Positions 5,516 through 22,594 are shown, counted from the stretch's first letter. The stretch: 33,261 bases of DNA from an uncultured Desulfovibrionaceae bacterium (GCA_964597455.1 CAZQXY010000003.1:1-33261); one strand, 5' to 3'. Numbers and translations are program-made. Notes: generated by a model not told the origin, from the sequence alone.

Positions 5516-5603
5516 GCCTTTTAGCAACTCCTCTCAATTATCCGGGTTCCTGCTCCTATAAAAATAGGTAATGAAAAAAATCAAATAACTCTTTTAAATA
5601 AAG

Positions 5604-6816: not shown

Positions 6817-6854
6817 TATGATTACCTCCTTGTTTTCTGTAAAAAATCGGATTG

Positions 6855-7619: not shown

Positions 7620-7968
7620 ATAAATCCCCCCTTTTCTTACAAGATAAACCCGTTGTTCAACCATTCCTTCTGTTTTAACTAGAGTAAAAATATCCTCAAA
7701 TCAAATAAGTATTATCTTGCCTAAGCAATTGATATGTTATACTGATACTAAAGGCATCTATAATAGTAGATAAAAATTGATAAACAGTATTAATGGTCAT
7801 ACAAAAGCAACAGAAATATCTCACCTCCTTTACCCGTTATCCAGGTATCCGGTATCCAGGGACAATATCCTTATAATTTTTAAAATACCTTCCGAATCCC
7901 CCTTTCTTACTTCACTAACAGATTATAGATTATATTATAAAACATTCCTTCCAACCGTTTGATTGGCC

Positions 7969-8145: not shown

Positions 8146-8886
8146 TTATGCATTCGGTTCAGCGCTATTTCTGTTCATTAACTTTTTAAAAAAAGAGTTA
8201 ACCAGTTTCTGGTATTCGGTAGGCGTCATAGTTTCTTCGGAAATTTTTTGCATCGTTGCAGAGGATATTAGTCCGTTTACTGCAAATTCTTCCCCTGCTT
8301 TTTTAACAAGCTCGTATTTTTCAAGATAAGCGTCACGAACAAAACCCAGAGAACTGGCAGGCACAAGAATCTCTCCCCCCAAATCCCAGGCGAAGTTTTT
8401 GCATATTGCCGTAAAATGATTGCGGATTTGATCAAAATTATCCCTTTCGGAAAAACCACAGGTAGAGACAAGCAACGCTGTTTGCTCGCGGGGCTTAAAC
8501 CTCCGGTGGCGGCAGTGTCCTTCCTTATCGTTTACTATGAAGGGGTCGAACATGGAAAAGCACCTATCCAGGACTGCTTTTACCGGAGTGCTAAAACCGA
8601 ATACATAAACAGGGCTGGCCAGGATTATTACATCTGCATCTTCAATTTCCGGCTTGAGAAGTTTCATATCATCTTCAACAGCACACTGTCCGGGAGTTTT
8701 AAACCAGCATGCCATGCAGGCTTTACAATAATGAATATTCATTTTATACGGATAGAATATTTTGAAATCGGCAGGATTAATTCCCTCTATGAATAGGTTC
8801 AAGATCTTTTCAGTAAATGATTTTTTATCTGGAAAACCGGATCTCGGCGAACCGCTTATAGCTACTACTTTTTTGGAAAACGTCAT
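8146..8886 (-). CDS. Flavodoxin-fold NADPH-dependent FMN reductase-like protein with an ISF-type cysteine cluster (iron-sulfur flavoprotein)
   Basis: Track ORF 8146..8895. N-terminus KVVAISGSPRSG is the FMN-reductase fold signature. The compact motif C-KA-C-MA-C-WFKTPGQ-C (CX2CX2CX7C) matches iron-sulfur flavoproteins. Preferred start is the ATG at 8886, 9 nt after GGAGGGGG. Confidence 0.7.
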   Translation of the reverse strand: MTFSKKVVAISGSPRSGFPDKKSFTEKILNLFIEGINPADFKIFYPYKMNIHYCKACMACWFKTPGQCAVEDDMKLLKPEIEDADVIILASPVYVFGFSTPVKAVLDRCFSMFDPFIVNDKEGHCRHRRFKPREQTALLVSTCGFSERDNFDQIRNHFTAICKNFAWDLGGEILVPASSLGFVRDAYLEKYELVKKAGEEFAVNGLISSATMQKISEETMTPTEYQKLVNSFFKKLMNRNSAEPNA

Positions 8887-9365
8887 AAGAAACATCCCCC
8901 TCCATTGATATTTCTTAATTTATACTATACCTTTTGTTTTGTATATCTTCTCTAAAAAGAGACTGTTTCCTGCTAAAAAAAATATCAAACCAAATTATTA
9001 ATATTTGCTACAATAATATTTAAATTAGAGAATTGAAACTTTTTAAACTTTTTATAGAAGTCGAATATTTTAGGCAGGAAATAAAAAATTATTGTTGAAG
9101 TAATTAATAATTAATAATAGTAAAAAGCTTTACCGGATTAATGTACCGCCATAGGAAATGCATTCTGATAGGGAGGTGTATACTGCTATCTTTTAATAAT
9201 TATAAGTAGGATGGTATGACGGTTATTGTTTTTATTGTCAGTTTCATTAATGTGTTGTGCACATAAAGTAAAACAGCAGCATGGGTGCCTCTATCAAGCC
9301 TTAATGATGGGGGTGTCTTTATGTGTTAATGAATTCCCAATTATTGAGAAGGAGGAAAATAAATC

Positions 9366-10952
9366 ATGACCGTCAGTAAATGGATGCATGCTGGAACAGT
9401 CTTAAAGATGAATGCCTCAAATTATCCTGATAAATTAGGCTGCCAGGATAAATTCAAGAGTTTTACCTTTAAAGAATGGAATGAACGGGCTTGCAGGCTG
9501 ACCAACGCATTATCGGAAGCGGGTGTCGGTTACGGTGAGCGGGTGGCCATACTCGCTTATAACCGCGTAGAATGGATGGAAATGTACGCCGGGTGCGCAA
9601 AGGGCGGGCAGATAGCCGTTCCGATTATGTTTCGGCTGGCTCCGGTTGATATTGAATATATCATCAACCACTCCGCAAGCAAAATAATTATTGTTGAAGA
9701 GCCTTTTATAGAAAGCATTAACAGCATACGGGATAAGCTTAAATCAATACCCCGGGATAATTTTATTTTCCTGGGAGAGGGAAAGGCTCCGGAAGGTTAT
9801 ATCCATTATAACGATTTTCTTAACCGGGGCAAACCTGCGGAACCGGATGTGATCGTAGACGCTAATGATCCGTGGACCATTATGTATACCTCCGGAACAA
9901 CAGGTAAACCAAAAGGAGTCGTAAGAAACCACGAAAGTTTTCTCGGGCAGTATTTCCTTAGTAATATGAGTATGGGCGTAAGACCGACAGATAAATCCAT
10001 GCTGGTAATGCCGATGTGTCATGTTAATTCCATCTATTATTCATTCGCCTATACTTACGTCACAGCGCCCATCATGGTGTATAATATGATAAGTTTTGAC
10101 GCTGAGGATCTTTTAAAAACAATATCTGATTATAAAATCACGTTCACCTCTCTGGTCCCGACCCATTATATTATGATCCTTGCGTTGCCTGATGAAATCA
10201 AACAAAAGTATGATGTTTCCAATGTCCGGCAGCTGCTTATATCCTCTGCTCCGGCAAGGAAGGACTTAAAGTTGGCCATTATGGACTACTTTAAATCGGT
10301 AGAGCTCTGGGAGGCCTATGGCTCTACAGAAGCGGCTCTTATAACGCTTTTGCGGCCGGAAGACCAGTTAACTCATCTTGGTTCGATAGGGAAAGAGATT
10401 TTTGGCATTGACAGAATTAAACTGCTTGATGAAGATGGAAATGAGGTACCGCAGGGAGAGGTAGGAGAACTATATTCCAGGTCCCCCGGAACATTCCAAA
10501 GGTACTGGGACGACCCTGAAAAAACCAAAGAGGTATTCCTCGGGGAATGGTGCACCGCAGGTGATATGGCTAAGAAAGATGAAAGTGGCTATTATTATCT
10601 GGTGGATAGAAAGAAAAACATGATTATTACAGGAGGCGAAAATGTTTATCCTTCTGAGGTGGAAAACGTCATTGGGGCACATCCGGCAGTGAAAGATGTA
10701 GCGGTAATCGGAGTCCCGGATGAAAAATGGGGCGAATCGGTTAACGCAATTATTATTTTACACCAGAATTACCAGCCTGGAGAAGAAATGAAGAAAGAAA
10801 TAATGGAATTTACTAAAGGCAAGGTGGCAGGTTTTAAACGCCCCAAAGATATCCATTTTATTTCCGATGAGGAAATGCCGCGAACGGGCACAGGCAAAAT
10901 ACTGCATCGCGTCTTGCGGGAACAGTTTGGCAAATGGAGCGATATGAATTAA
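9366..10952 (+). CDS. AMP-forming acyl-CoA/aryl-CoA ligase (adenylate-forming class I)
   Basis: 528 aa. Motifs: YTSGTTGKPKGV, EAYGSTE, GDMAKKDESGYYYLVDRKKNMIITGGENVYPSEVE, and a C-terminal catalytic Lys in TGTGKI. AAGGAGG lies 10 nt upstream. This is the only plus-strand gene. Confidence 0.85.
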   Translation: MTVSKWMHAGTVLKMNASNYPDKLGCQDKFKSFTFKEWNERACRLTNALSEAGVGYGERVAILAYNRVEWMEMYAGCAKGGQIAVPIMFRLAPVDIEYIINHSASKIIIVEEPFIESINSIRDKLKSIPRDNFIFLGEGKAPEGYIHYNDFLNRGKPAEPDVIVDANDPWTIMYTSGTTGKPKGVVRNHESFLGQYFLSNMSMGVRPTDKSMLVMPMCHVNSIYYSFAYTYVTAPIMVYNMISFDAEDLLKTISDYKITFTSLVPTHYIMILALPDEIKQKYDVSNVRQLLISSAPARKDLKLAIMDYFKSVELWEAYGSTEAALITLLRPEDQLTHLGSIGKEIFGIDRIKLLDEDGNEVPQGEVGELYSRSPGTFQRYWDDPEKTKEVFLGEWCTAGDMAKKDESGYYYLVDRKKNMIITGGENVYPSEVENVIGAHPAVKDVAVIGVPDEKWGESVNAIIILHQNYQPGEEMKKEIMEFTKGKVAGFKRPKDIHFISDEEMPRTGTGKILHRVLREQFGKWSDMN

Positions 10953-11006: not shown

Positions 11007-11042
11007 ATGACTCTACCGGGCGCAAAAATCCGGTAGAGTCAT
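11007..11042. terminator. Bidirectional hairpin between the two convergent CoA-ligase genes
   Basis: 13-bp perfect stem ATGACTCTACCGG/CCGGTAGAGTCAT with a 10-nt loop. It sits 55 nt after the plus-strand stop and 74 nt after the minus-strand stop. The flanking U-tracts are weak. Confidence 0.55.
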
Positions 11043-11115: not shown

Positions 11116-12696
11116 TTAACCGGCGCTTGATTGTGAAGGGTCAATATATTTTTTGCGCATTAAGGGCTTGTTAATTTTTCCTGTTACGTTGCGCAAGACA
11201 CTATCAAAGACAATTTTCTCAGGCCATTTATACTTGGCCAACCCCTGCTGTGAACAAAATTCAACGACTTCTTTTTCGGTCATCGTTTCCCCGGGGTATA
11301 ACTGAACTATCGCCATGGTTATTTCCACCAGTCTTTCATGAGGGTAACCTATTACGGCTACATCAGCAATTTTTGAATTTCTGCGCAGCACATCTTCAAT
11401 CTCAACCGGGAATATGTTTTCTCCCCCTCTGATAATGAGATCTTTCTTTCTGTCCGCAATATAAATATAGCCGTCCTCATCCATTTTAACCAGGTCACCG
11501 GTGTAGAGCCAGCCATCAACAAGCGTTTTAGCTGTCATTTCAGGGTTTCTAAAGTATTCTTTCATGTTTCTTGGGCCTTTTAGGAGCAGCTCACCTACTT
11601 CACCAACAGGAACATCCTTTCCGTATTCATCAACTACTCTCGTTTCAACATTATAAGTACCTTTGCCAATTGAACCGGGTCTGTCTAATACATCTTCGTC
11701 GTACAAGTTTAATGTGCCTCCGCCACCGCCTTCAGTGATGCCATAAATATTGCCTGTTTTAAAGGGAATAAACTCTCTCATGTCTTTATACAGTGAAGAA
11801 GGTACAGGTTGCGCTCCGATTACAATACCTCCGATTACATGGGAAAAGTCGTATTCGCCCATATCAATCGCACCTTTTTTAACGGCATTTACCGTGTCGG
11901 ACATGGTGGGCACCGTAACCCAACCATGGGTAACTTTCTCCTGATAAATGGTATCCAATAAATAGCGCGGGTCATTTAATTCTAAAAGAATAACAATCTT
12001 GCCACCGGCCAGGTAGGAGGGAAATGAGAGAAAAAAGCTCCCGCTATGATAAAAGGGGTGGGGCGCCAGATAAACCGTCTCGTGGCCTTCACCATAGGTT
12101 AGCGCATCGCCAATACCTATTTGGTAAAGAGTATCGTGTGCCTGGCAAACAGGCTTAGGGGGTCCGGTTGTCCCGGAGGTAAACATCAACTCTGCCGGGT
12201 CCCCCCAGTCGGTATCAACGATAATATCCTCGGAAGAAGAGCTTTCCATTATCTCGTTATATGAAACCATATTATCCGGGATATTCTCACCAAGACAAAT
12301 ATAAGAACTGACGCTGCTTAGTTCACCTTCTATGGGTTGAACCTTGGGAAGAAAGCCTTCTCCAAAAATAAAAACCTTTGGATTGCAGGCATCCGCTGCA
12401 TATTTGATATCCGTGGGAGCAAACCGGAAATTCAAAGGTACGGCAACAGCGCCTACCCTTAAAATAGCATGATAAGTTACAATCCATTCCATGCTGTTCA
12501 TTTGCAAATGAAGGATATAATCACCCTTTTGCACACCGAGTTTATTTTTCAAATAATTGGCAACTTTATTGGTTTGTTCGTTAAATTCTTTCCAGGTTAA
12601 AGAACGCCTCAATTTTTTTGATGGTGTGAGCTCAATAAGAAACTCCTGCTGCGGGTACTTCTTCGCATTTATGATACCGTAATAAGCAAAATTCAT
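11116..12696 (-). CDS. AMP-forming acyl-CoA/aryl-CoA ligase, last gene of the 2-hydroxyacid/ior operon
   Basis: 526 aa. Motifs: FTSGTTGPPKPV (P-loop variant), YGITEGGGGGT, GDLVKMDEDGYIYIADRKKDLIIRGGENIFPVEIE, VTGKINK. AGGAGG lies upstream of the ATG at 12696. Confidence 0.85.
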   Translation of the reverse strand: MNFAYYGIINAKKYPQQEFLIELTPSKKLRRSLTWKEFNEQTNKVANYLKNKLGVQKGDYILHLQMNSMEWIVTYHAILRVGAVAVPLNFRFAPTDIKYAADACNPKVFIFGEGFLPKVQPIEGELSSVSSYICLGENIPDNMVSYNEIMESSSSEDIIVDTDWGDPAELMFTSGTTGPPKPVCQAHDTLYQIGIGDALTYGEGHETVYLAPHPFYHSGSFFLSFPSYLAGGKIVILLELNDPRYLLDTIYQEKVTHGWVTVPTMSDTVNAVKKGAIDMGEYDFSHVIGGIVIGAQPVPSSLYKDMREFIPFKTGNIYGITEGGGGGTLNLYDEDVLDRPGSIGKGTYNVETRVVDEYGKDVPVGEVGELLLKGPRNMKEYFRNPEMTAKTLVDGWLYTGDLVKMDEDGYIYIADRKKDLIIRGGENIFPVEIEDVLRRNSKIADVAVIGYPHERLVEITMAIVQLYPGETMTEKEVVEFCSQQGLAKYKWPEKIVFDSVLRNVTGKINKPLMRKKYIDPSQSSAG

Positions 12697-12765
12697 CTGA
12701 TAATCGCCTCCTAGATTGCTAATTTATTTAATTCTCAACTTTCATAATTCTCAGAGCCGGATGGC

Positions 12766-12834
12766 GACAGCGCTGCAGAGGAGCTCAGGCTCAAATGCTC
12801 CGGTACTTTCCCTGAGCACCAACTGCAAGCTGTC
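12766..12834 (-). other. GC-rich imperfect long hairpin in the iorB-ligase intergenic spacer (candidate structured RNA or processing/attenuation element)
   Basis: The minus-strand RNA reads GACAGC-UUGCAG-uuggu-GCUCAGG-[21 nt]-CCUGAGC-uccu-CUGCAG-c-GCUGUC. That gives three nested helices of about 19 bp in total. The element is about 60% GC in an otherwise AT-rich spacer, and no U-tract follows it. Confidence 0.35.
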
Positions 12835-12871
12835 AACCCGCTATCTGGAAAATACGCGGCTTATAAATTAA

Positions 12872-13459
12872 TCAAGCCGTTTGCATTTGTCTGCCTGCCT
12901 CAAAGGCTTTAATGTTTAAATCCACAAACTTGTCGGGCACCATACGCTTAATAACATTAAGCCAGGCGCTCTCTTCACCGCCAACCAGGCTGGAAAGGAC
13001 ACCGAGCAGAACTACACCAACAACTGCCGGATTGCCGAGTTCTTTGGCTTTTTCGGTAGCATTAACCCAAAACACTCTGGAAGCAGCACTCTTTAGCAGG
13101 GAATCCAGATCCTCTTCCCGGGGGTAACTGGCTTTCCCCAGGTTTACAGACGGAGGCGGAATGCGATAACGATTTACGATAATAGCAGCATCTTTATTAA
13201 TAAAAGCCGGCCATCTTCCCGCTTCGAGCATTTCAAAACCAAGCAGGTAATCCACATCTCCCTGAATGGCCACAGGTGCATAGACCTTATCCCCCCAACG
13301 TACATGGCTTTCCACTGTACCGCCACGCTGGGCCATCCCATGAACTTCCGCCTTCTTAACATCATAACCCAACTCCAGGCCCACTTCCGCCAGAATATTG
13401 CTGGCCAGAATAGTACCCTGTCCGCCAACACCGGCCATCAAGAAATCAATTTTTTCCAA
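12872..13459 (-). CDS. iorB: Indolepyruvate/arylpyruvate:ferredoxin oxidoreductase, beta subunit
   Basis: 195 aa. Starts ...MAGVGGQGTILASNILAE..., the pyruvate/ketoisovalerate oxidoreductase gamma-type domain. It lies immediately downstream of iorA. Confidence 0.85.
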   Translation of the reverse strand: MEKIDFLMAGVGGQGTILASNILAEVGLELGYDVKKAEVHGMAQRGGTVESHVRWGDKVYAPVAIQGDVDYLLGFEMLEAGRWPAFINKDAAIIVNRYRIPPPSVNLGKASYPREEDLDSLLKSAASRVFWVNATEKAKELGNPAVVGVVLLGVLSSLVGGEESAWLNVIKRMVPDKFVDLNIKAFEAGRQMQTA

Positions 13460-13498
13460 CTGCCAGCCTCCTCTCTTATCAGATCATCTTGTTGTTTA

Positions 13499-15259
13499 TT
13501 ATACTTCCTGAACGATAGCCTCTACAGGACAAACCTGAACGCAAAGTCCACAGCCGTTGCAAAGCAATGGATCTATACTTACATTATCCTCTTCCTGCAT
13601 GAGAGGCGAACACCCCAGATCCAGGCAGGTCCCACAGTTGGTGCACTCATCAGCATTTACCTGGGGAGGGGTACGTTTTTCCTTAGTGTAAAGGACGCAA
13701 GGCCGCTTGGAGATAATTACCGAAGGCTTTCCGTTATTAAGGTGATCTTCCAGTACCCCCTCGAATTTCTCCAGGTCATACGGATCAACCACATCTACCA
13801 GATTATAACCTATGCTGCGCACCAGTTTTTCCAGATCTACCGCATTGGTTGTTTTTTTCTGCAAGGTAATACCTGTTCCCGGATGTTGCTGGTGTCCTGT
13901 CATGGCCGTTACACTATTATCTGCAATAATAGTTGTAACATTGCTCTCATTGTAGAGCACATTTATCAGGGGATGAATACCCGAATGGAAAAAAGTAGAA
14001 TCACCGATGACGGCTACAATACGGTCCTTTACCCCTGCTTTTGCCACCCCATGAGCCACTCCGATACTTGCCCCCATACATCCGCACGTATGCATCGCGC
14101 TAAGGGGGGGCGCAAAGCCTAGGGTATAACATCCGATATCACCGAGCACTAAAACGCCGGCCTCCCTGAGAACATGGAACATACCGCGATGGCCGCAACC
14201 CGGGCAGAGCATTGGCGGCCGTACAGGAAGCTCGACAGCGGGGGCAGTTGCCGCTGCTTCCGCTTCAACCGCCGGCGCATCAATCAGCCCCGCGTCAAGA
14301 GCGCACTGATGGATCAAGAAAGGGCTAAATTCACCGATCATGGGGAAAATATCCTTTCCTTTTACTTCTATCCCCAATAAACGGAGATGCTCTTCAAAAA
14401 AGGGATCCAGTTCCTCAATTACTACCACGGTTTTTACCCTGGAAGCAAATTCTTTAATGAGTTTTTGCGGCAGGGGATAAACCATGCCCAGCTTGAGAAA
14501 GGTAGCGTTTGGAAAGACCTCACGCGCATACTGGTAAACTGAGCCGGCTGCAACAATCCCCAGGGAATCATCTCCCGGTTCAATGCGGTTAATGTCAAGC
14601 GTCTCAGCATAATCGGCCAGTTTAATAATCTTCTCCTCTATCACTGGATGACGGTGACGGGCATTGGCAGGAACCATCACACATTTTAAAGGAGCACGTT
14701 CATAATACGGAAGGTCCTCCGGAGGCGGCGGAGGGCCGTTTTCCGAGATCTCTACCGGCGAAGAAGAATGAGAGATCCGCGTAACGGTCCGTACCATAAC
14801 CGGCGTATCAAAGGCCTCGCTCATTTCCAGCGCAATACCCATAAACTGCTTACATTCCTCGCTGTCGGACGGCTCGAGCATTGGAAGCTTAGCAAATTTG
14901 GCATAGTTTCGATTGTCCTGTTCGTTTTGGGAACTGTGCATGCCCGGGTCATCCGAACAGGCGATAACAAGCCCTCCTTTCAACCCGGTATAGACGGCAT
15001 AAAAAAGTGAATCGGCAGCAACGTTAAGCCCCACATGCTTCATTGCAACCATAGCCCTGCTGCCTGCATATGCTGCGCCAATACCCACGTCCATAGCAAC
15101 TTTCTCGTTAGGGGCCCACTCGGCTAAAACCCCCGGGTACCTGGCGAAGTTTTCCATTATCTCTGTGCTGGGCGTCCCCGGATAGGCGGCCCCTACCCGT
15201 ACCCCGCTGAGATAAGCACCATAGGCCAGGGCCTCATTTCCTGTCATTAGTTTTTTCAA
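13499..15259 (-). CDS. iorA: Indolepyruvate/arylpyruvate:ferredoxin oxidoreductase, alpha subunit
   Basis: 586 aa. N-terminus KKLMTGNEALAYGAY...YPGTPSTEI. TPP motif IGDSTFFHSG...N. Two C-terminal ferredoxin-type clusters (CTNCGTC..., CNGCGLCVQVCP). TTG start, 9 nt after AGGAGG. Confidence 0.9.
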   Translation of the reverse strand: MKKLMTGNEALAYGAYLSGVRVGAAYPGTPSTEIMENFARYPGVLAEWAPNEKVAMDVGIGAAYAGSRAMVAMKHVGLNVAADSLFYAVYTGLKGGLVIACSDDPGMHSSQNEQDNRNYAKFAKLPMLEPSDSEECKQFMGIALEMSEAFDTPVMVRTVTRISHSSSPVEISENGPPPPPEDLPYYERAPLKCVMVPANARHRHPVIEEKIIKLADYAETLDINRIEPGDDSLGIVAAGSVYQYAREVFPNATFLKLGMVYPLPQKLIKEFASRVKTVVVIEELDPFFEEHLRLLGIEVKGKDIFPMIGEFSPFLIHQCALDAGLIDAPAVEAEAAATAPAVELPVRPPMLCPGCGHRGMFHVLREAGVLVLGDIGCYTLGFAPPLSAMHTCGCMGASIGVAHGVAKAGVKDRIVAVIGDSTFFHSGIHPLINVLYNESNVTTIIADNSVTAMTGHQQHPGTGITLQKKTTNAVDLEKLVRSIGYNLVDVVDPYDLEKFEGVLEDHLNNGKPSVIISKRPCVLYTKEKRTPPQVNADECTNCGTCLDLGCSPLMQEEDNVSIDPLLCNGCGLCVQVCPVEAIVQEV

Positions 15260-15294
15260 TGTTTTATTCCTCCTTTCTTCTAGCTACTGGAATT

Positions 15295-16503
15295 TCATTG
15301 GGATGATGAAGCCAATTGTTCAAAAAATGGTTCCAACCTGGCGAGAAATTGGGCCTCAGAGAAAAAGCGCAAATCGGACATATCAGCATCAAAAACCACC
15401 CCCGGAAGGCCGGTTCTCTCGCTTAAAACGCTGCGTTTGTCATAAAGGCCCAGGGAGGTCGATTTACAGCTGCGGTTTGAGAAAAGCACAAAACCGTCAA
15501 CACCGTACTTTTGGAAAAAATTCATTTTCAACTGCAATCTGTATTCAAAAGAACGGTTGACAAACCCCGCAGTATAGTTTTCCGCCAGGCTTTCAAGTGG
15601 GCGCTTTAGATCAAAAGAATAAGCCCACGAATGGGTATATTGAGAAACAGCTACCAGAGAATTATGGTCTGCAAACAGCTCGGAAAACCAGCGCAATTTT
15701 GGCCAGAGGGGTATATGGTCAAAATAGATTTTATAGCGTTCGCCGGGTATGGCAGTTATTCCTTCTTTTATTCTCCCATCAACCTCCTCCTTGAGCGCCT
15801 GGTAATATTCTACCGCCTCACGTGTGCCACGCATGGTAACAATAGGGGCCATGTGAAAACAGGCATCAAAAAAGCCGAAAGGAGCGGGTTTCATGGCAGC
15901 GGTATCAAGAATCTCATTCCAAAGCCTGCAGGCCTCATTGGCATAATGCAGTACCTCGATTAAACGATCATAATCGAAGGGTTCTGCCGTAATTTTTTCC
16001 ACAAAGGCGATCATCTCCTTGAGCTGATCTACATAATAACCGGTAACAAGCTCTTCGGGCTGATCCAGTATCTGGGGTGCATCGACCAGAAAATAAGGTA
16101 CATTATAATACCTGCCGGCTACTTCAAACCACTTCGCCAGGGAGCCGCACTGGGTATTGCAGCAAAATGTTACATCCGGCTGAAGAATTTCCCCGACCGG
16201 GTGCTCATCAGCATAGGCATCACCGATACCGCAGCGGGCATAACCACAAAGGTCGTGGGCATACCCTTTGGCTTCTGCATAAAGGGAGAGCTTATCCGCT
16301 ACCTTCCTTGCTGAAGCCAGCGCACCAAAGTTTTCCGGGTAATAGGGGAAAACCCCCGCCGCGTAGAGTATCTCTACCGGAAAGATTGCAGTCACCCAGG
16401 CGACTGGAATGCGTTTTTCTTTTGCATCAGCTCCTTTGGCATAATAATCTTGCATGATCTTTTTCATCCGGGCAGCTGTTTTAAAGACCTTTTTCTCAGA
16501 CAT
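15295..16503 (-). CDS. 2-hydroxyacyl-CoA dehydratase / benzoyl-CoA reductase family catalytic subunit (HgdA/FldB/BcrB-like)
   Basis: Track ORF 15295..16587. Preferred start is the ATG at 16503 (MSEKKVFK...), with GGGGGTGA 6 nt upstream. Family features: ...PVAWVTAIFPVEILYAAGVFPYYPEN..., DLCGYARCG, and a conserved C-terminal Cys (RSCKS). Confidence 0.8.
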   Translation of the reverse strand: MSEKKVFKTAARMKKIMQDYYAKGADAKEKRIPVAWVTAIFPVEILYAAGVFPYYPENFGALASARKVADKLSLYAEAKGYAHDLCGYARCGIGDAYADEHPVGEILQPDVTFCCNTQCGSLAKWFEVAGRYYNVPYFLVDAPQILDQPEELVTGYYVDQLKEMIAFVEKITAEPFDYDRLIEVLHYANEACRLWNEILDTAAMKPAPFGFFDACFHMAPIVTMRGTREAVEYYQALKEEVDGRIKEGITAIPGERYKIYFDHIPLWPKLRWFSELFADHNSLVAVSQYTHSWAYSFDLKRPLESLAENYTAGFVNRSFEYRLQLKMNFFQKYGVDGFVLFSNRSCKSTSLGLYDKRSVLSERTGLPGVVFDADMSDLRFFSEAQFLARLEPFFEQLASSSQ

Positions 16504-17644
16504 TGCTTTCACCCCCAACCATTTCCATGAATGCATGTATTCTCGTCTGCAACTGACCCAGTGAAGTATCTCCGAACTCGGTTTCAATACGCAGGGAGGG
16601 AATCCCCGCCTGCTCTAATGCCTGTAGATTATCATAGTAATCATAGTTCTCAGGTTCACAGTATTTCAGGTGTAAAAAAAGCACCCCCTGAACCTTTTTC
16701 TGCTGTGCTGCTTTTACAAGGTTATACCGCCGCGGGGCCGACGGTACATCATAACCGGCAAAAGGTGTTTTCTTTAGCTGGCGGTTAGCCAGAGACTCCC
16801 AGGGGGATGCATCGGTATCTTCAACATCGGCTTCGATATAACGAAAACCGTTTTTAAGATCATCTCCTACGACAGTCACACCACTTTCATCCAGGTAATC
16901 CAGTACCTCCGGGGGATTGATGAATGTACCGGAAATATATAGTTTTGTTTTATTGTTACTAACCGGAGGTTTTGTTTTTTCTTCCAGCGTTGCTACCAGC
17001 TCGCTTAAAAAGCGGTTTAGTTTTTCCCTTTCAATTACCATAGATGCCCCAAGCACAGCGTAAAGGTCTTTATTGCTGATAGCCTCCGGATTATGCTCAT
17101 GAATGCTATACAGCTTGCGCAACAAGCCCCTGTTGCTGTTGTAAAGCCGGATACTTTGTCTTAATTCTTCATCGGTGATCTCTTTTCCTCTGTACCCGCT
17201 CAGGTTGTGCGTTATTCTCTCCAGCTCCCCAAGGAGGTATTTTTTGGCGCTCGGGCGTTCAACTTGCCTTGGCAAGCGGAAGCTGTCCATATAGGGAAGC
17301 GGAGTGTTATGTTCCCAAATACCAGGAAGCAAACGGGTAGAATCACACGTGAGCGGAAAAATCACTCCATCCAAAAAATCAAGTTCGCCATTTATAGCCA
17401 GGGCCAACCCCTTACGGACATAAGAACACGCCCAGGTCTGCAGGTGGGCTTCTGCCTGCTCCATCCTGGCCCTACCGCCGCAAATACCAAAGGGGAAAAA
17501 ACCTGCCGCATGAATTAACTCCTCTGGAACGTCTGTCAGAAGAAAACCGATTGCTTTGCCGCCTGTTTTTTGTTTCCACTCCTTGACCTGCCGGCCGGGA
17601 TCCGCAAATGCTTTTTTTAGAACTCCTAATGCTTCTATGCTCAC
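16496..17644 (-). CDS. 2-hydroxyacyl-CoA dehydratase / benzoyl-CoA reductase family catalytic subunit (HgdB/FldC/BcrC-like)
   Basis: 382 aa. GTG start 6 nt after AAGGAGA. Family signatures: ...KAIGFLLTDVPEELIHAAGFFPF... and ...FLHLKYCEP.... The stop overlaps the next start by 8 nt (ATGTCTGA), which indicates translational coupling of a heterodimer. Confidence 0.8.
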   Translation of the reverse strand: MSIEALGVLKKAFADPGRQVKEWKQKTGGKAIGFLLTDVPEELIHAAGFFPFGICGGRARMEQAEAHLQTWACSYVRKGLALAINGELDFLDGVIFPLTCDSTRLLPGIWEHNTPLPYMDSFRLPRQVERPSAKKYLLGELERITHNLSGYRGKEITDEELRQSIRLYNSNRGLLRKLYSIHEHNPEAISNKDLYAVLGASMVIEREKLNRFLSELVATLEEKTKPPVSNNKTKLYISGTFINPPEVLDYLDESGVTVVGDDLKNGFRYIEADVEDTDASPWESLANRQLKKTPFAGYDVPSAPRRYNLVKAAQQKKVQGVLFLHLKYCEPENYDYYDNLQALEQAGIPSLRIETEFGDTSLGQLQTRIHAFMEMVGGESNV

Positions 17645-17728
17645 TTGCTATCTCCTTTCTGCAGCTAAAAGGTATTTACTTGTTCTCAGCATGCACCTTG
17701 GGACGATTACTGGAACTGCCTGCCCATA

Positions 17729-18727
17729 TCATTTGCGGTTGGATTCAAATTCTGGAGCAATATTACTTAATGGCTCTCCTTTCAAAAAGCGTTCGATATT
17801 ATCTACAAAAACACCGCCGAATCTCGCAGCATACATATCCGTCCAGCTGGAAACATGTGGGGTAATAAGAACATTAGGCGTTCCCCATAGTTCATCTTCC
17901 GGAGGCAAGTAAGAAGGCAGAGGGCTTTTAATCCACTGCGTATCGTTAGCAGCCCCGGCGATCCATCCCTCCCTCAAAGCCTTCATCAGGGCATCTTTAA
18001 CAACCAACGAACCGCGGGCACAATTGATCAGGTACGCCGTCTTTTTCATCAGTTTAAAACGGTCTTCATTCATCAAACCCAGAGTTTCGGGAGTCTCAGG
18101 ACAAGAGAGGACCAGAAAATCCGCCTGTTTAATTACTTCGTCCACCTGTTTATTCAAATACATCTCATCTACATTGGGGATGTCCATAATCAGAATATCG
18201 GTTCCAATCACGCGCATATCAAAGCCCTTGGCCCTTTTGGCAATCTGACGCCCAATTCCCCCGAGGCCAACTATCCCCAGCGTTTTTCCATAGAGTTCTT
18301 CACCGCGCACACGGACAAAATTTTTTTCTTTTTGATTATCCCAGATCTGATTATATTTTTTTGTTAAATTTAACATCAGGCCAAGAGTAAATTCCGCCAC
18401 CGGTATTCCCGACCCCCCGGGGAGATGCAGCAACGGAATATGTGCGGGCATTTGGCCCCACTTAATAAAGTGATCATAACCTGAACTAAATGTCATCACC
18501 CACTGCAGGTTTTTCATCTGCGGAATTTTTTCAACGATCATTCCTGTACCGATAATATGCGTATCTAATACATCATCACCAAGTGACGAGCCATCCTGGG
18601 ATAAACGGATACGAATTTCGCCGCTGGCGACTTTATCCGGGAAACGTTCTTTTATCAATTGTTCATACTCATCCGGAGCACCCAATCCGGGTTGTAAAAC
18701 AACCAGGATATTGAGAGGATTAAACAT
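17729..18727 (-). CDS. D-isomer-specific 2-hydroxyacid dehydrogenase (NAD-binding)
   Basis: Track ORF 17729..18745. Motifs: GIVGLGGIGRQIAKRA (GxGxxG), NCARG, and ITPHVSS (catalytic His). Preferred start is the ATG at 18727, after GGAGGTG plus 7 nt. Confidence 0.85.
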   Translation of the reverse strand: MFNPLNILVVLQPGLGAPDEYEQLIKERFPDKVASGEIRIRLSQDGSSLGDDVLDTHIIGTGMIVEKIPQMKNLQWVMTFSSGYDHFIKWGQMPAHIPLLHLPGGSGIPVAEFTLGLMLNLTKKYNQIWDNQKEKNFVRVRGEELYGKTLGIVGLGGIGRQIAKRAKGFDMRVIGTDILIMDIPNVDEMYLNKQVDEVIKQADFLVLSCPETPETLGLMNEDRFKLMKKTAYLINCARGSLVVKDALMKALREGWIAGAANDTQWIKSPLPSYLPPEDELWGTPNVLITPHVSSWTDMYAARFGGVFVDNIERFLKGEPLSNIAPEFESNRK

Positions 18728-19213
18728 AAAAAGACACCTCCACAAAATTAAAATTCATCTTCCGTTCAGGAAGCAACCCATGCTGCCGTATTACTTTTCA
18801 AAATTTAACAACAGGGCCAGATCACATTTCGCGCAGAGGCATCCGTACTACCATTCTTCAGCCTGAAAATGAATTTTTAAATAAACCCCTTTAAAAATTT
18901 AACGCCAAAAACCACAAGAATTAGTGCTGCATATAGAGATTAGAGTTAGTTTTAACAGTTATTACAGATCCTAATAAGTATACTATTTTATGTTTTGTTA
19001 ATTGCCTGACTTGTTAATAAATATACATCCCCTGCCTTTCCGATTCCATAATTCCTTGCCATTTATTTATCCTATAATAATACATATTCTATGCGGATGC
19101 GGTTTTTCCTGCAGAAAATATAAAAAAAAATAAAATATCCCTCTTTTTTGATTTAAGTATAATATCTGAAAATTTATAGCGTGGCACATTGCGCACAGTT
19201 GTATACTATACAT

Positions 19214-20041
19214 TTATATATTCAATATAATTGCGGCAGTACCACCCAGAATTCGTTCTTTCGCTTCTTCATTAAGGGGCAACTGTCTTAAATCATGAAT
19301 ATTTTGTTTAATATCCTTTACTCCGGGCCAGTCAGAACCAAATAATACCTTATGGCTAATTTTTTCTAACTCGGGGAAATAGTCCGGTAACTTTTTAGGA
19401 GGCAAACCTGCTATCTCCGTATAAACGTTTGTATGCAGTTTTGTTAAGAAAAAGGCTCTGTCATACCAGAACCCCCTGCCCCCATGGACAAGAATAATCT
19501 TCATCTTAGGAAAATCAATAGCCACATCATCAAGGTAAAGGGGATCTCCATACTTAAGCCTTGCCCCCTCAAAAACAGAAGAACCGGTATGAAACATAAC
19601 CGGAATTTGCAACTCCTCGGCCTGTGCATATAAAGGATACAATGAAGAGTCATTTGGATAAAAATGCTGATAAGTAGGATACATTTTTAATCCTCGAAAT
19701 CCCTTTTTTACCAAATGCTGCAGTTCAATTTCCATTCTAACGGTCGTGAAAGGGTTTATGCTGGCGAATGGGATTAGCATTTCCTGCCCCCTGCAGAACT
19801 CAAGCACATATTCGTTGGAACATATACCGGTTACTGCAGGACTAAGTTCTGCCAGGACGACTCCGTAATCAATGCCACTTACTTTTAAGTATTGCACGAA
19901 AAAATTCGGATCACAGTATGATGCATAAAATTCATCCCAATTCTTTCCCGCATGCATATTCCTAATCCAATTAAAAGTACTCTCCCCGTAATACTCATAA
20001 TGTATAGGGTGAAGATGAAAATCAATCACGGGAGCACCCAT
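19214..20041 (-). CDS. Amidohydrolase_2-type metal-dependent hydrolase/decarboxylase (TIM barrel)
   Basis: 275 aa. N-terminal metal motif IDFHLHP, then MFHTG, ILVHGG and GSDWP. This residue pattern matches the ACMSD/LigW/LigI-type amidohydrolase_2 superfamily. The substrate cannot be inferred. Confidence 0.7.
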   Translation of the reverse strand: MGAPVIDFHLHPIHYEYYGESTFNWIRNMHAGKNWDEFYASYCDPNFFVQYLKVSGIDYGVVLAELSPAVTGICSNEYVLEFCRGQEMLIPFASINPFTTVRMEIELQHLVKKGFRGLKMYPTYQHFYPNDSSLYPLYAQAEELQIPVMFHTGSSVFEGARLKYGDPLYLDDVAIDFPKMKIILVHGGRGFWYDRAFFLTKLHTNVYTEIAGLPPKKLPDYFPELEKISHKVLFGSDWPGVKDIKQNIHDLRQLPLNEEAKERILGGTAAIILNI

Positions 20042-20096
20042 TCGCCAAAACCCCTTTCATCTTAAAACCGCCGTACTCCACATTTGCTTAGCCGGA

Positions 20097-20507
20097 TCAC
20101 GCCGGTAAAAATTGATAGCTTAGCTGTCCATCAGGAAGAGAAATTGCCTCAGCTTTTACCTCCATACCAACTGTAATTTTTTCTTCAGGAGTATCCTTGC
20201 TTAAACGGCCAAAAACTTTAATGCCATTGAAATCCGCCAGTGCAAGAATATAGGGTACATCAGATTCGAAGCCGGTAGGGCCATAATTTACTTTAGTAAA
20301 GCTTATGATCCTCCCACTGCCTTCAACTTTAATCCACTCCATATCTCTCGCCAAACAAGAACTGCAATCTGCTTGCGGCGGAAAATAAACGCGGCCACAC
20401 GCGCGGCATTTGGTAGCACGGATTTCATTTTTGCTCAGATAGTCTACAAAAGCCTCTGTTTTTGTTTGAGATGTAAAGCTAACATATCCAAATTTTTCAA
20501 AACCCAT
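20097..20507 (-). CDS. DUF35 Zn-ribbon/OB-fold protein (thiolase-associated, BbsA-like)
   Basis: Track ORF 20097..20699 is over-extended into the thiolase gene. The real start is the ATG at 20507 (MGFEKFGY...), preceded by GGGAGGT plus 6 A. Zn ribbon CRACGRVYFPPQADCSSC is followed by an OB-fold segment. About 136 aa. Confidence 0.75.
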   Translation of the reverse strand: MGFEKFGYVSFTSQTKTEAFVDYLSKNEIRATKCRACGRVYFPPQADCSSCLARDMEWIKVEGSGRIISFTKVNYGPTGFESDVPYILALADFNGIKVFGRLSKDTPEEKITVGMEVKAEAISLPDGQLSYQFLPA

Positions 20508-20511
20508 TTTT

Positions 20512-21666
20512 TTACCTCCCAAAAATGGCCACATTGCCGTATATTCCAACGCCGCCAATATTATGCACCAGACCGATCTCTGCACCCGGTACTTGTATCT
20601 CACCGGCTTCACCGCGTAACTGCAATACAATGGTACGCACCTGTGAACCGCCGGTAGCTCCGATGGGATGGCCTTTAGACAGCAGGCCGCCGTCAACATT
20701 TACGGGAATCTTTCCTTCCAAATAAGTCTCCCCTTCCCGAATCAGCTCCGATCCTTTGCCGGGCTCAGCAAAACCAAGGTTCTCGTAAGCCATCATCTCA
20801 GCGATGGTAAAACAATCGTGAACCTCTGCCACATCAATATCCTGGGGGCCTAACCCTGCCATCTTGTAAGCCTCCTGGGCAGCCACACGGGCACAATTCA
20901 GGCCGTCTAACGCATCCCTGCCCGTCATCGTCAGGGAAGCTGTTCCCGACCCTGTCCCCAAAATCCACACCGGCTTTTTAGATATTTCCTTAGCTCTATC
21001 CGCGCTGGCCAGAATCATGCAGGAAGAGCCGTCCGCATTCGCACAACAATCAAATTTTTTTAACGGACTGGCAATGTATTCGGAATTTATACATTGTTCC
21101 AGGGTAAGCTGTTTGCGGTAGACTGCTTTTTCGTTAAGTGTACCATATTTGGTAGCCTTAACTCTAATTAACGCAAGATCCTCTTCCGCCGTGCCATACC
21201 GGGCAAAATGTGCGCGGGCATGCATCGCATAATAAGCAGGCATCATCGTCCCAAAAGGTGATTCCCACATAATATCCGCTCCACGCCCCATACGTTCCTG
21301 AGAATCTGCGGAAGTGATTTCAGACATCTTTTGAAAGCCCAGCACAACAACAATATCGTGTAACCCTGATTTAATCAATGCATAGGCAGCCCTTAAGCCG
21401 CTGGTGCTTGATGAACAAACTGATTCCATTGCGAAAGTAGGTTGTGGATTCAAACCCAGGTACTCCGCCATAAGACCGGCAGGACTGCGTTGTTTATCAT
21501 ACTCCGGCGCTGAGCAAATGATTGAAGCACCAACATCCCTGTTTGTTATGCCTGCATCTTTCATCGCTTCACTGTAAGCTTCAAAAGCTAATTCCCTGAT
21601 AGAACCTTCATAATTTCTCACGAAAGTACTCTGGCCTACTCCGATAACGGCCACATCTTTTGGCAT
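20512..21666 (-). CDS. SCP-x/thiolase-like protein (non-AtoB type; BbsB / archaeal thiolase-like)
   Basis: Track ORF 20512..21729. Preferred start is the ATG at 21666 (MPKDVAVIGVGQS...), after GGGGGAGGGAACAAT. Nucleophile Cys in ESVCSSSTSG. C-terminal GHPIGATG and NIGG. A 4-nt gap separates it from the DUF35 gene. Confidence 0.8.
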   Translation of the reverse strand: MPKDVAVIGVGQSTFVRNYEGSIRELAFEAYSEAMKDAGITNRDVGASIICSAPEYDKQRSPAGLMAEYLGLNPQPTFAMESVCSSSTSGLRAAYALIKSGLHDIVVVLGFQKMSEITSADSQERMGRGADIMWESPFGTMMPAYYAMHARAHFARYGTAEEDLALIRVKATKYGTLNEKAVYRKQLTLEQCINSEYIASPLKKFDCCANADGSSCMILASADRAKEISKKPVWILGTGSGTASLTMTGRDALDGLNCARVAAQEAYKMAGLGPQDIDVAEVHDCFTIAEMMAYENLGFAEPGKGSELIREGETYLEGKIPVNVDGGLLSKGHPIGATGGSQVRTIVLQLRGEAGEIQVPGAEIGLVHNIGGVGIYGNVAIFGR

Positions 21667-21698
21667 ATTGTTCCCTCCCCCAAAATGTATATATACCC

Positions 21699-22445
21699 CT
21701 AAGGCATAATCATCCCGCCATCGATACAAATCGTCTGGCCGGTTATAAAACTTGATTCATCCGAGGCTAAAAAGACAATCGTGGGCGCTATTTCCTCCGG
21801 TTTTGCAAAACGCCCCAGAGGAATACGTTCTAAGTATTTTTCCTTAAATTTTGGATCGTGCGCTATTTTTTGCGTCATATCGGTTTCAGCCATCGGTGAA
21901 ATTGTATTTACCCTTATCGAATACCTGGCCAGTTCTTTGGCGGCAGACTTTGATAATGCATAAATGCCTCCCTTGGCGGCGGTGTAGTTTGCCTGTCCTA
22001 CTGTACCGTTCAACCCGGCTGAAGAAGTGACGTTAATAATTGAACCGGACTTCTGCTCCATCATCGGCTTTGACACCGCTTGAATGCAGTAAAAGGTACC
22101 ACTGAGATTAATTCTGATGATATCTTCCCACTGCTCCTCCGTTGTATTCCACAGCATAACAGGCCTGCTTACGCCGGCATTGTTAAAGAGTGCGTCTATC
22201 CGGCCAAAATACTCTAGAGCTTCGTCAACCATTTCAAAAACTTGTGCCCTGTTACCGACATCTACCTGCTTCACAAATACCCGGCGGCCAAGATTTTTAA
22301 CCGCCTGCACCATGGGAGCATCAGGCTGGATGCTTCGGCTAACCAGTACAAGATCGGCGCCTTCCCTGGCCAGCGCCAAGGCTACCGACTCGCCGATACC
22401 TTTCCGCGCACCGGTTACAATAACAACCTTGTCTTTTAACCGCAT
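21699..22445 (-). CDS. Short-chain dehydrogenase/reductase (FabG / 3-hydroxyacyl-CoA dehydrogenase-like)
   Basis: 248 aa. Motifs: VTGARKGIG (TGxxxGIG), NNAG, and the catalytic YTAAK (YxxxK). Confidence 0.85.
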   Translation of the reverse strand: MRLKDKVVIVTGARKGIGESVALALAREGADLVLVSRSIQPDAPMVQAVKNLGRRVFVKQVDVGNRAQVFEMVDEALEYFGRIDALFNNAGVSRPVMLWNTTEEQWEDIIRINLSGTFYCIQAVSKPMMEQKSGSIINVTSSAGLNGTVGQANYTAAKGGIYALSKSAAKELARYSIRVNTISPMAETDMTQKIAHDPKFKEKYLERIPLGRFAKPEEIAPTIVFLASDESSFITGQTICIDGGMIMP

Positions 22446-22546
22446 GTAATCACCTCACATTATTATATTTTGTTTGCTATCTCAAACTATATTTTCGGCA
22501 AGGATTTGGGAAACTCCTTCTTTTGTTAATTAAAGTGTTATGAATA

Positions 22547-22576
22547 TAAAAAGAACACCAACCGGTGTTCTTTTTA
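22547..22576 (-). terminator. Rho-independent terminator of rpsB-tsf
   Basis: The minus strand reads AAAAAGAACACC-GGTT-GGTGTTCTTTTTAT, a 7-bp GC-containing stem extended by A/U pairs and followed by a U-run. It lies 20 nt after the tsf stop. Confidence 0.8.
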
Positions 22577-22594
22577 TATTTAGATCTAACCGCT

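Follow-up and report, generated by a model that had tools for sequence, protein, structure and literature searches.

Denitrifying bacteria degrade phenylacetate by the Pad enzymes (PadJ, PadBCD, PadEFGHI), in which the alpha-carbon is oxidised by a membrane-bound molybdenum enzyme and phenylglyoxylate is then decarboxylated, with benzoyl-coenzyme A (CoA) as the output. Pad is treated as "the known" phenylacetyl-CoA pathway (PMC13416013). In Clostridium sporogenes, the FldH/FldA/FldBC/FldI system combines a D-2-hydroxyacid dehydrogenase, a family III CoA-transferase and a heterodimeric [4Fe-4S] dehydratase of the HGD-D family; aryllactyl-CoA is converted to cinnamoyl-CoA, which is reduced to arylpropionate by Acd/Etf. 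Clostridioides difficile has the leucine-related dehydratase HadBC (PDB 3o3m) together with HadI, HadA, LdhA and AcdB/EtfBA. In anaerobic toluene degradation, BbsAB and BbsCD act on aryl 3-hydroxyacyl- and 3-oxoacyl-CoA and release benzoyl-CoA. In methanogens and rumen bacteria, a ligase acting together with indolepyruvate:ferredoxin oxidoreductase (Ior) is an accepted route by which phenylacetate and indoleacetate are reductively carboxylated (PMC6737245; PMC6827263). Here we analyse a stretch of 33,261 nt from an uncultured Desulfovibrionaceae bacterium (GCA_964597455.1 CAZQXY010000003.1:1-33261; "the window" hereafter), in which genes related to several of these systems lie side by side at positions 11116-22445.

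One earlier record of a comparable set of genes exists, from the deltaproteobacterium Desulfococcus multivorans. Its cluster Dmul_24730-24900 carries genes for IorA3B3, a "putative phenylpyruvate reductase", two FadD-type ligases (518 and 526 aa), Hbd, hydratase and thiolase, a two-component system and a TRAP transporter, besides the alpha subunit of an "R-phenyllactate dehydratase" and the activator of this enzyme (PMC5109826); bam, dch and oah genes are adjacent to it. Proteins of its two adjacent gene clusters were formed specifically on phenylacetate and phenylpyruvate; the organism also grows on phenyllactate (PMC5109826). The organism lacks padB and padEFGHI, and its authors called the conversion to benzoyl-CoA unclear, assigning the beta-oxidation enzymes to "phenylglyoxylate formation" (PMC5109826). 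For a benzene-degrading sulfate reducer, a sequence from 2-oxo-3-phenylpropanoate through a 2-hydroxyacyl-CoA and cinnamoyl-CoA to benzoyl-CoA was hypothesised in 2026 (PMC13416013). In the library searched, only these two sources bore on the route, and no paper demonstrated it. The module analysed here can be likened to the D. multivorans cluster by annotation (IorAB, phenylpyruvate reductase, dehydratase, two FadD-type ligases, TRAP). It differs in host and gene order, in that the activator lies inside the D. multivorans cluster, and in having a short-chain dehydrogenase (SDR), an Amidohydro_2 protein and a DUF35 protein where D. multivorans has a canonical Hbd and a FadB-like fusion. A preliminary description of the window had considered the combination undescribed as a unit. 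This was too strong, given the D. multivorans gene set and the 2026 hypothesis. The route has been suspected in sulfate reducers but is not known to have been demonstrated. Each enzyme belongs to a known family. The novelty lies in how broadly, and in which two architectures, the module is conserved in Bacillota, in its ligase-dependent, transferase-free and Etf-free design, in the SDR/Amidohydro_2/DUF35 variant, and in the argument that Ior makes it an arylacetate-degrading pathway.

Open reading frames (ORFs) of the window were scanned against Pfam, and families were ranked by NCBIfam/TIGRFAM equivalog cut-offs. Two minus-strand operons make up the block. Operon A encodes a D-2-hydroxyacid dehydrogenase (HADH), the beta-like and alpha-like subunits of an HGD-D enzyme, IorA, IorB and an AMP-forming CoA ligase (LigA), and operon B encodes the SDR, an SCP-x-type thiolase, the DUF35 protein and the Amidohydro_2 protein (Table 1). 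The genes listed in the preliminary description are all present where it had placed them, with strong family matches; Pfam E-values in the two operons span 1e-12 to 1e-82. With moderate confidence, we read the block as a putative peripheral module of anaerobic aromatic catabolism, which would funnel aryl-C3 2-oxo and 2-hydroxy acids and, with Ior working as a carboxylase, also aryl-C2 acids to benzoyl-CoA or 4-hydroxybenzoyl-CoA. The core of this claim, a dehydratase feeding beta-oxidation, is common to both directions in which Ior might run, and taken over both it is probably correct.

In the proposed route, an AMP-forming ligase (LigA or a PaaK-type enzyme) would activate arylacetate, and IorAB with reduced ferredoxin would carboxylate arylacetyl-CoA with CO2 to arylpyruvate. 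From this hub, HADH would reduce arylpyruvate to (R)-aryllactate; exogenous phenylpyruvate or phenyllactate would enter at the arylpyruvate or aryllactate stage. A second ligase, LigB, would form (R)-aryllactyl-CoA. A ligase in place of a CoA-transferase would make sense because the thioester is carried on to benzoyl-CoA, leaving no acyl-CoA product as a CoA donor. The oxygen-sensitive [4Fe-4S] enzyme that the HGD-D subunits would form, with an ATP-dependent activator from elsewhere in the genome, would yield cinnamoyl-CoA by ketyl-radical dehydration. After hydration, for which the Amidohydro_2 protein is a candidate, the SDR would oxidise the 3-hydroxy group, and the thiolase/DUF35 pair would cleave the product to benzoyl-CoA and acetyl-CoA. 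Benzoyl-CoA would then be handed to the neighbouring Dch and Had of the ring-reduction pathway. Input (phenylacetate or phenylalanine, presumably) and output would thus be those of Pad, with one carbon added first and two then removed by beta-oxidation. By our own bookkeeping, this route and Pad come out even in overall redox balance if acetyl-CoA is oxidised further.

To place the block in context, homologues of the alpha subunit were collected. There are 216 at E <=1e-20, mostly from uncultured Bacillota, and the named carriers include Desulfoscipio gibsoniae, Desulfosporosinus, Pelotomaculum and Thermincola. A scan with one genome per species gave 567 encoding stretches, from which the best 80 loci were taken; ORFs were called in all loci and clustered, and recurrent clusters were named by Pfam and NCBIfam. 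Counts below refer to 85 non-redundant loci, the window and 84 related ones (designated L001 and so on). The nearest loci are from a Dethiobacteria metagenome-assembled genome (MAG; 92% identity, sharing the codY context) and a Bacillota MAG from an anaerobic digester (91%). IorA occurs in 57 loci, HADH in 50, the thiolase in 44, Amidohydro_2 in 31, the SDR in 30, DUF35 in 28, a 3-hydroxyacyl-CoA dehydrogenase (3HCDH) in 20, a crotonase in 19 and an activator in 12, and counts of orthologues by tblastn are similar.

Two architectures recur. The first, that of the window, runs [TRAP transporter], [response regulator and histidine kinase, in opposite orientation], [methyltransferase], SDR, thiolase, DUF35, Amidohydro_2, HADH, HGD-beta, HGD-alpha, IorA, IorB, LigA, with LigB convergent to it. 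The second, of Desulfotomaculia type, runs ligase(s), HGD-beta, HGD-alpha, 3HCDH, enoyl-CoA hydratase (ECH), IorA, IorB, thiolase, DUF35 and a hexapeptide protein. The two operons are co-conserved. In many MAGs of Dethiobacteria and "Syntrophomonadaceae", operon B lies ahead of operon A and is read in the same direction, and its orthologues accompany the IorA and HADH core in about 15 of 26 large loci. The strongest comparative argument comes from the second architecture: because 3HCDH, ECH, thiolase and DUF35 genes are interleaved with those of the dehydratase and IorAB in Desulfotomaculia, Thermincola and other lineages, the gene order supports the view that dehydratase, Ior and beta-oxidation act together.

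IorA passes its equivalog model, and IorB, which adjoins it, falls marginally under its own. IorA is mostly directly adjacent to the HGD-D pair and on the same strand. The carboxylating direction is favoured because Ior is found in one gene string with the dehydratase in 57 of the 85 loci, and because at least two AMP-forming ligases, which would be pointless if arylacetyl-CoA were the end product, are present in 29 of 39 large Ior-containing loci. It is favoured further because in D. gibsoniae and others the gene right after IorB encodes a PaaK-type ligase, because the transporters that accompany related loci are of carboxylate type (TRAP, SSF, MFS) while aminotransferases do not recur, and because Pad-type genes are neither present in the window nor recurrent in the related loci. 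It also makes sense of the D. multivorans data, in which growth on phenylacetate and induction of the cluster's beta-oxidation genes occur without PadB or PadEFGHI (PMC5109826). The ligase-Ior pair of methanogens and rumen bacteria offers a parallel, with an AMP-forming arylacetate ligase beside IorAB turning arylacetyl-CoA into arylpyruvate; there arylpyruvate is transaminated to the amino acid, an anabolic use, whereas the dehydrogenase, dehydratase and beta-oxidation genes found here suit a catabolic one.

The preliminary description had instead placed Ior, with PaaK and PaaI, on a parallel oxidative branch beside the same core. Arylpyruvate would give arylacetyl-CoA and reduced ferredoxin, and the arylacetate would be excreted or handled by PaaK/PaaI; the ferredoxin could be used to activate the dehydratase and to reduce benzoyl-CoA by the class II enzyme. 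Oxidation is the textbook direction of Ior. In D. multivorans, IorA3B3 was most abundant on phenylpyruvate, more so than on phenylacetate, for which the authors invoked gratuitous induction, and the same behaviour was reported for Desulfobacula toluolica (PMC5109826). An ADP-forming acyl-CoA synthetase, able to draw ATP from arylacetyl-CoA, adjoins a Pelotomaculum cluster, and PaaI-like and PaaY-like thioesterase-family genes lie nearby. However, the AMP-forming ligases that accompany Ior would be futile in this direction, the ADP-forming synthetase occurs in just one Ior-containing locus, and no Pad-type genes recur that could take arylacetyl-CoA further. The left-hand genes on which the branch drew do exist, but the labels PaaK and PaaI are too specific, both products scoring below their equivalog cut-offs, and the PaaK-like gene of the window clusters with Dch/Had. 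We consider the parallel branch the weaker reading and rather unlikely.

The two ligases and HADH fit the carboxylating route as follows. LigA is a candidate arylacetate or cinnamate ligase, and its orthologues (69-96% identity) follow IorB in 33 loci. LigB, a candidate (R)-aryllactate-CoA ligase, lies beyond the two operons of the preliminary description and is yet a conserved core member of the module, with orthologues (70-94% identity) in 38 loci. In several lineages these stand directly between HADH and the HGD-D genes, in the order HADH-LigB-activator-HGD-HGD-IorAB. HADH, a candidate arylpyruvate reductase or (R)-aryllactate dehydrogenase, is associated with IorA (Fisher p 1.5e-5). When HADH and LigB were compared with the PDB, only generic matches came up (glyoxylate reductase/phosphoglycerate dehydrogenase and FadD-type, respectively), with no clue to the substrate. 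A role of the window's PaaK-like gene as the arylacetate ligase of the module is not supported, since it fails the PaaK cut-off and shares only 30-35% identity with the PaaK-type ligases inside related clusters. In Pelotomaculum (L005, 7250-8500, and L068) a malic-enzyme family gene takes the place of HADH directly upstream of the HGD-D genes, with an ADP-forming acyl-CoA synthetase gene nearby.

Identification of the HGD-D pair as a dehydratase is central to the route. The ATG of the alpha subunit (16503-16501) overlaps the stop codon of the beta subunit (16498-16496) in ATGTCTGA; the translational coupling noted earlier is hence real. HadBC is the best match of both subunits among solved structures. 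The alpha subunit matches HadB (3o3m_A) end to end over residues 1-396 (E 3.5e-59, 204 bits), compared with E 1.3e-37 and 133 bits for MbdO and E 8.9e-35 and 124 bits for BzdO, both subunits of benzoyl-CoA reductases (BCRs). The beta subunit matches HadC (3o3m_B) with E 3.9e-50 and BzdN with 2e-42. NCBIfam models rank likewise, with 254 bits for HadB against 165 for BCR-B, and 206.6 bits for HadC against 174.4 for the double-cubane family and 169.3 for BCR-C. Three cysteines in each subunit are conserved: Cys86, Cys119 and Cys346 of alpha, numbered from the true start, are invariant in 76 homologues, and Cys73, Cys100 and Cys329 of beta are conserved at 96-100% in 72. They are putative cluster ligands, in agreement with the ligation of one [4Fe-4S] cluster by three Cys in each HadBC subunit. 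Because of the structure match, the model ranking and the conserved cysteines, the pair is grouped with the dehydratases within the HGD-D family, probably as a separate subfamily, in a comparison with HadBC alone. A 55%-identical Pelotomaculum homologue is auto-annotated as "R-phenyllactate dehydratase subunit alpha". The window differs from the Had system in its gene order (beta then alpha), in its aromatic context, in having a ligase instead of HadA, and in lacking AcdB/EtfBA.

All characterised dehydratases of the HGD-D family require an ATP-dependent activator of the HgdC/FldI/HadI type. No BcrAD_BadFG activator was found in the 33-kb window by Pfam or by tblastn with a related activator, a gap that the preliminary description had overlooked. 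An activator (TIGR00241, 265 bits) lies within or beside the cluster in the 12 loci counted above, and we infer that the source genome encodes one elsewhere. In L023 (885-2567), L025 and L006 (5266-6931), the cluster is preceded by two different BcrAD_BadFG ATPase genes (about 257 and 291 aa) next to each other, and in Desulfosporosinus two such genes lie near the HGD-D pair. Such pairs resemble the heterodimeric module of class I BCR more than the single-gene, homodimeric activators of known dehydratases. They raise an alternative in which the HGD-D pair would be the catalytic part of an ATP-driven, BCR-like enzyme that reduces or dehydroxylates aryl-CoA or enoyl-CoA, working with two BcrAD-type ATPase subunits in stoichiometric fashion, and the nearly equal scores of the beta subunit for HadC and for BCR-C/double-cubane would agree with it. 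But the alpha subunit is clearly nearer to HadB, several loci carry a single activator gene between LigB and the HGD-D genes, and the steady association with a D-2-hydroxyacid dehydrogenase and with a ligase follows dehydratase logic. Class I BCR models also fail (130-169 bits vs cut-offs of 421-487), and no ATPase genes were found in the window. The assignment of the pair to the dehydratase family in the preliminary description is supported, in that the pair is closer to HadBC than to class I BCR, and a BCR-like function appears quite improbable. An FMN reductase (8146-8895), encoded between Dch/Had and LigB, might carry low-potential electrons to the activator of the dehydratase; it is conserved in just three to four loci and sits between two crotonases in L013.

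The products of operon B point to the fate of the enoyl-CoA. The SDR, a candidate 3-hydroxy-3-arylpropionyl-CoA dehydrogenase in a BbsCD-like role, has orthologues (at least 45% identity) in 26 of 83 related loci. The thiolase, a candidate benzoylacetyl-CoA thiolase, matches PDB entries 7yvy, 6esq and BbsB 7pxp (E 1.9e-47). Its translation contains the CSSS nucleophile and the HDCF and GHP motifs, and its true start is likely M22 of the listed ORF, at about 21666. The DUF35 gene begins 4 nt past the thiolase stop codon; its product, called as 136 aa in relatives, has a weak match to BbsA (E 1e-8) and is the predicted partner of the thiolase. With the catalytic Cys and both motifs intact and a DUF35 protein encoded next to it, the thiolase has the BbsAB-type architecture. 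It is not a BbsB orthologue (183 bits vs a cut-off of 750), equivalents of BbsEF, BbsG and BbsH are missing from the window, and the expected substrate is benzoylacetyl-CoA, not benzoylsuccinyl-CoA.

This gene content bears on the classical Stickland reductive branch, in which Acd/EtfAB would reduce the enoyl-CoA to arylpropionyl-CoA and a CoA-transferase would recycle CoA, both encoded elsewhere, with the SDR, thiolase and DUF35 protein unrelated. It is the sole fate known from experiment for the products of these dehydratases (Fld, Had, Lcd, Hgd), and a FadE-type acyl-CoA dehydrogenase gene lies near four of the loci. As the preliminary description had stated, however, the island is free of such partners. 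The Pfam scan of ORFs in the window found no CoA-transferase, Acd or Etf, and neither CoA-transferase, Etf nor aminotransferase is among the annotated families that recur in at least 3 of the 85 loci. Beta-oxidation genes interleaved with the HGD-D and Ior genes, adjacent benzoyl-CoA pathway genes, and host lineages that are respiratory or syntrophic aromatic degraders rather than amino-acid fermenters likewise speak for beta-oxidation, and the Stickland branch seems very improbable here. The enzyme family fits the (R)-2-hydroxyacyl-CoA dehydratases, whereas the classical pathway partners (CoA-transferase, Acd/EtfAB) do not. The same holds in comparison with the Fld system: the dehydrogenase and heterodimeric dehydratase are alike by description, and so is the arylpyruvate hub shared with a 2-oxoacid:ferredoxin oxidoreductase. 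In the window, AMP-forming ligases stand in place of the family III CoA-transferase and beta-oxidation and benzoyl-CoA genes in place of Acd/Etf, and the activator gene is missing.

The window-type architecture has no crotonase for the hydration of cinnamoyl-CoA. The preliminary description had credited the island with a full hydratase/dehydrogenase/thiolase set. The SDR and the thiolase/DUF35 pair stand, but the crotonase and Zn-ADH that it had counted belong to ring metabolism, as Dch-like crotonase and Had; as side-chain hydratase and dehydrogenase they were ruled out. Amidohydro_2 is directly upstream of HADH in 31 of the loci. It co-occurs with the SDR (Fisher p 6.5e-13), as the crotonase does with 3HCDH (p 1.6e-6), and is anti-correlated with the crotonase, both being present in one locus only, the window itself (Fisher p 0.001). 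Because of this pattern, the gene distribution suggests that Amidohydro_2 and SDR replace ECH and 3HCDH. The protein is modelled by AlphaFold2 as an amidohydrolase TIM barrel (pLDDT 90.5), with the LigJ hydratase, LigI-type lactonases and aromatic-acid decarboxylases among its Foldseek neighbours. Together, the sequence search, the model and Foldseek group it with LigJ, LigI, ACMSD and aromatic-acid decarboxylases and do not discriminate between these. The family is also very large (more than 3400 matches), which weighs against the hydratase idea, and in Pelotomaculum thermopropionicum and a Syntrophus MAG the genes around homologues of 61-64% identity are unrelated to the module, which weighs against a dedicated role. 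Because the searches are undiscriminating and homologues lie in unrelated neighbourhoods, we do not assert the hydratase function; the protein could be an enoyl-CoA hydratase, as a candidate only.

Two further observations concern Amidohydro_2. The exact protein is found on 11 contigs, among them one of an anaerobic-digester metagenome. The 64%-identical gene of P. thermopropionicum (AP009389; L092, 10001-16198) lies between serS and acd-etfBA-fixCX, with no HGD-D or Ior gene nearby.

The neighbours of the block indicate its product. The Dch-like crotonase is 70% identical to an L013 crotonase beside Had and Oah, compared with 33-41% to the side-chain crotonases of the second architecture, and its gene overlaps that of Had. 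By their sequences, both would belong to the lower benzoyl-CoA pathway and so mark benzoyl-CoA as the product. Oah (TIGR03200, 560.8 bits vs 464) adjoins the cluster in 11 related loci, though not in the window, and the alpha subunit of 4-hydroxybenzoyl-CoA reductase (1142 bits vs a cut-off of 995) is adjacent in others; these neighbours point to phenyl and 4-hydroxyphenyl substrates. In D. gibsoniae (CP003273; L001, 5835-7709), a regulator with XylR_N, V4R and PucR-type helix-turn-helix domains lies directly upstream of HADH-HGD-HGD-IorAB-PaaK-SSF-PaaK. Amino-terminal domains of the XylR_N/V4R type typically sense aromatic effectors. The genome paper of D. gibsoniae is silent on this HGD-D/Ior cluster. 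Because IorA, Had and Oah pass their thresholds and 4-hydroxybenzoyl-CoA reductase, the XylR_N/V4R regulator and UbiD are found nearby, the substrate appears to be aromatic, and the aryl-CoA product that the preliminary description had expected gains support. Aliphatic or branched-chain 2-oxo acids (for example 2-oxoisocaproate, giving isocaprenoyl-CoA) are very unlikely substrates: the nearest solved structure is a 2-hydroxyisocaproyl-CoA dehydratase and in a 45%-identical Thermincola cluster the partners of HGD-D are a Liv-type ABC transporter and a 2-oxoacid oxidoreductase other than Ior, but IorA passes an aryl-specific equivalog model, the neighbours just named are those of aromatic metabolism, and the D. 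multivorans counterpart responds to phenylacetate and phenylpyruvate (PMC5109826).

Paralogous HADH-ligase-Ior-HGD clusters occur in pairs in single genomes (L021/L022, on one contig of a Dethiobacter alkaliphilus MAG; L008/L016; L018/L070). The L021 cluster runs on into thiolase, DUF35, 3HCDH, ECH and 4-hydroxybenzoyl-CoA reductase genes and the L022 cluster into genes for a TRAP transporter, a PaaK-type ligase and a UbiD-family protein, which suggests substrate-specialised copies.

Several points weigh against the proposed route. Both HGD-D subunits are far under their equivalog cut-offs (HadB 254 vs 750; HadC 207 vs 700), and for beta the margin of HadC over BCR-C and double-cubane models is narrow; HadBC was the sole characterised dehydratase in the sequence comparison. 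The window contains no activator, no dedicated regulator and no assigned crotonase for cinnamoyl-CoA hydration. The synteny statistics lack phylogenetic independence, since the genomes behind them are related. Pad genes, too, are reported for D. gibsoniae, and in energetic terms the linear route would cost two AMP-forming activations and one pair of low-potential electrons as reduced ferredoxin.

The conserved gene set nevertheless provides a concrete candidate pathway for the phenylacetate gap in sulfate reducers, in which PadB and PadEFGHI are absent (PMC5109826). If correct, it would explain growth of D. multivorans and Desulfobacula toluolica on phenylacetate without these enzymes. More broadly, and as a tentative proposal, strict anaerobes may degrade phenylacetate and 4-hydroxyphenylacetate by a hitherto unrecognised route without molybdenum or quinone, through one-carbon elongation with Ior, reduction, a second ligase, ketyl-radical dehydration and beta-oxidation. 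Within that arylacetate route, Amidohydro_2 might replace the crotonase as enoyl-CoA hydratase. The radical 2-hydroxyacyl-CoA dehydratases would then extend from Stickland fermentation, with its CoA-transferase and Acd/Etf, to complete oxidation with ligases and beta-oxidation, and would gain a respiratory or syntrophic catabolic role beyond amino-acid fermentation. In digesters, sediments and guts, aromatic amino acids are major intermediates, as are the arylacetates, aryllactates and arylpyruvates derived from them. For annotation of Bacillota MAGs, HADH, ligase, HGD-D pair, IorAB and thiolase/DUF35 pair form a signature of the module, and the L001 locus of D. gibsoniae offers a tractable cultured system.

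Table 1. Features of the block and its left-hand neighbours, with window positions and the matches that identify them
Feature	Position	Strand	Evidence
SDR	21699..22445	-	Pfam adh_short_C2 E 1.3e-66; TGxxxGIG and YxxxK motifs in translation
SCP-x/archaeal-type thiolase	20512..21666	-	Thiolase_C_1 E 2.5e-43; NCBIfam PRK06064 428.9 vs cut-off 420
DUF35 protein (zinc ribbon and OB fold)	20097..20507	-	zf-ChsH2 E 9.6e-13; OB_ChsH2_C E 4.1e-12
Amidohydro_2 TIM-barrel metalloenzyme	19214..20041	-	PF04909 E 8e-33
D-2-hydroxyacid dehydrogenase (HADH)	17729..18727	-	2-Hacid_dh_C E 6.3e-53
HGD-D beta-like (HadC-like) subunit	16496..17644	-	PF06050 E 1.8e-82
HGD-D alpha-like (HadB-like) subunit, presumed substrate-binding	15295..16503	-	PF06050 E 3.3e-70
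IorA, indolepyruvate/arylpyruvate:ferredoxin oxidoreductase alpha	13499..15259	-	TIGR03336 689.2 bits vs cut-off 650.9
IorB	12872..13459	-	POR domain E 2e-38; best IorB equivalog 226.9 bits vs cut-off 230
LigA, FadD-type AMP-forming CoA ligase	11116..12696	-	AMP-binding E 6e-70
Perfect 13-bp inverted repeat between convergent ligase genes	11007..11042	.	ATGACTCTACCGG...CCGGTAGAGTCAT, read directly
LigB, FadD-type AMP-forming CoA ligase	9366..10952	+	AMP-binding E 5e-77
Iron-sulfur flavoprotein-like FMN reductase	8146..8895	-	FMN_red E 4e-16; Cys-rich motif
Dch-like crotonase	6855..7664	-	best NCBIfam TIGR03189 177 bits vs cut-off 292.5
Had (the "Zn-ADH")	5749..6870	-	TIGR03201 490.7 bits vs cut-off 338.65
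PaaK-family ligase	4196..5527	-	TIGR02155 240 bits vs cut-off 646
PaaI-like hotdog (4HBT) thioesterase	3611..4003	-	TIGR02286 102 bits vs cut-off 118.9

A 486-bp AT-rich non-coding gap (18728-19213) separates Amidohydro_2 from HADH; in the relative L003 it measures 472 bp. No clear terminator was found in it, and a gathering-threshold Rfam scan of the whole window gave zero matches, hence no known riboswitch in the gap, which is presumably a promoter or regulatory region. Promoter and terminator consensus scans gave counts not above those of shuffled sequence (37 vs 32.4 and 21 vs 15.7, respectively) and no usable operon boundaries. The inverted repeat between LigA and LigB is, as read from the sequence, a likely bidirectional terminator.

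The right flank of the block is housekeeping (tsf, rpsB, codY, hslUV, xerC, trmFO, topA, dprA), and degV and fakA lie beyond the PaaI-like thioesterase gene on the left. The catabolic block starts about 150 bp after tsf (window 19214-23209), breaking the rpsB-tsf-pyrH-frr run usual in Bacillota; pyrH and frr are not in the window, and the position of the block is common to close relatives (L004, 468-4800; L070, 85-894). One close relative has a group II intron maturase (GIIM) gene and a hexapeptide-repeat gene between tsf and the SDR gene, neither of which is present in the window. The G+C content is 0.46-0.50 across the Ior, HGD-D and HADH genes (window 12000-18000) and 0.39-0.43 in the flanks; horizontal acquisition, or the codon and amino-acid bias of Fe-S enzymes, could account for the raised value.

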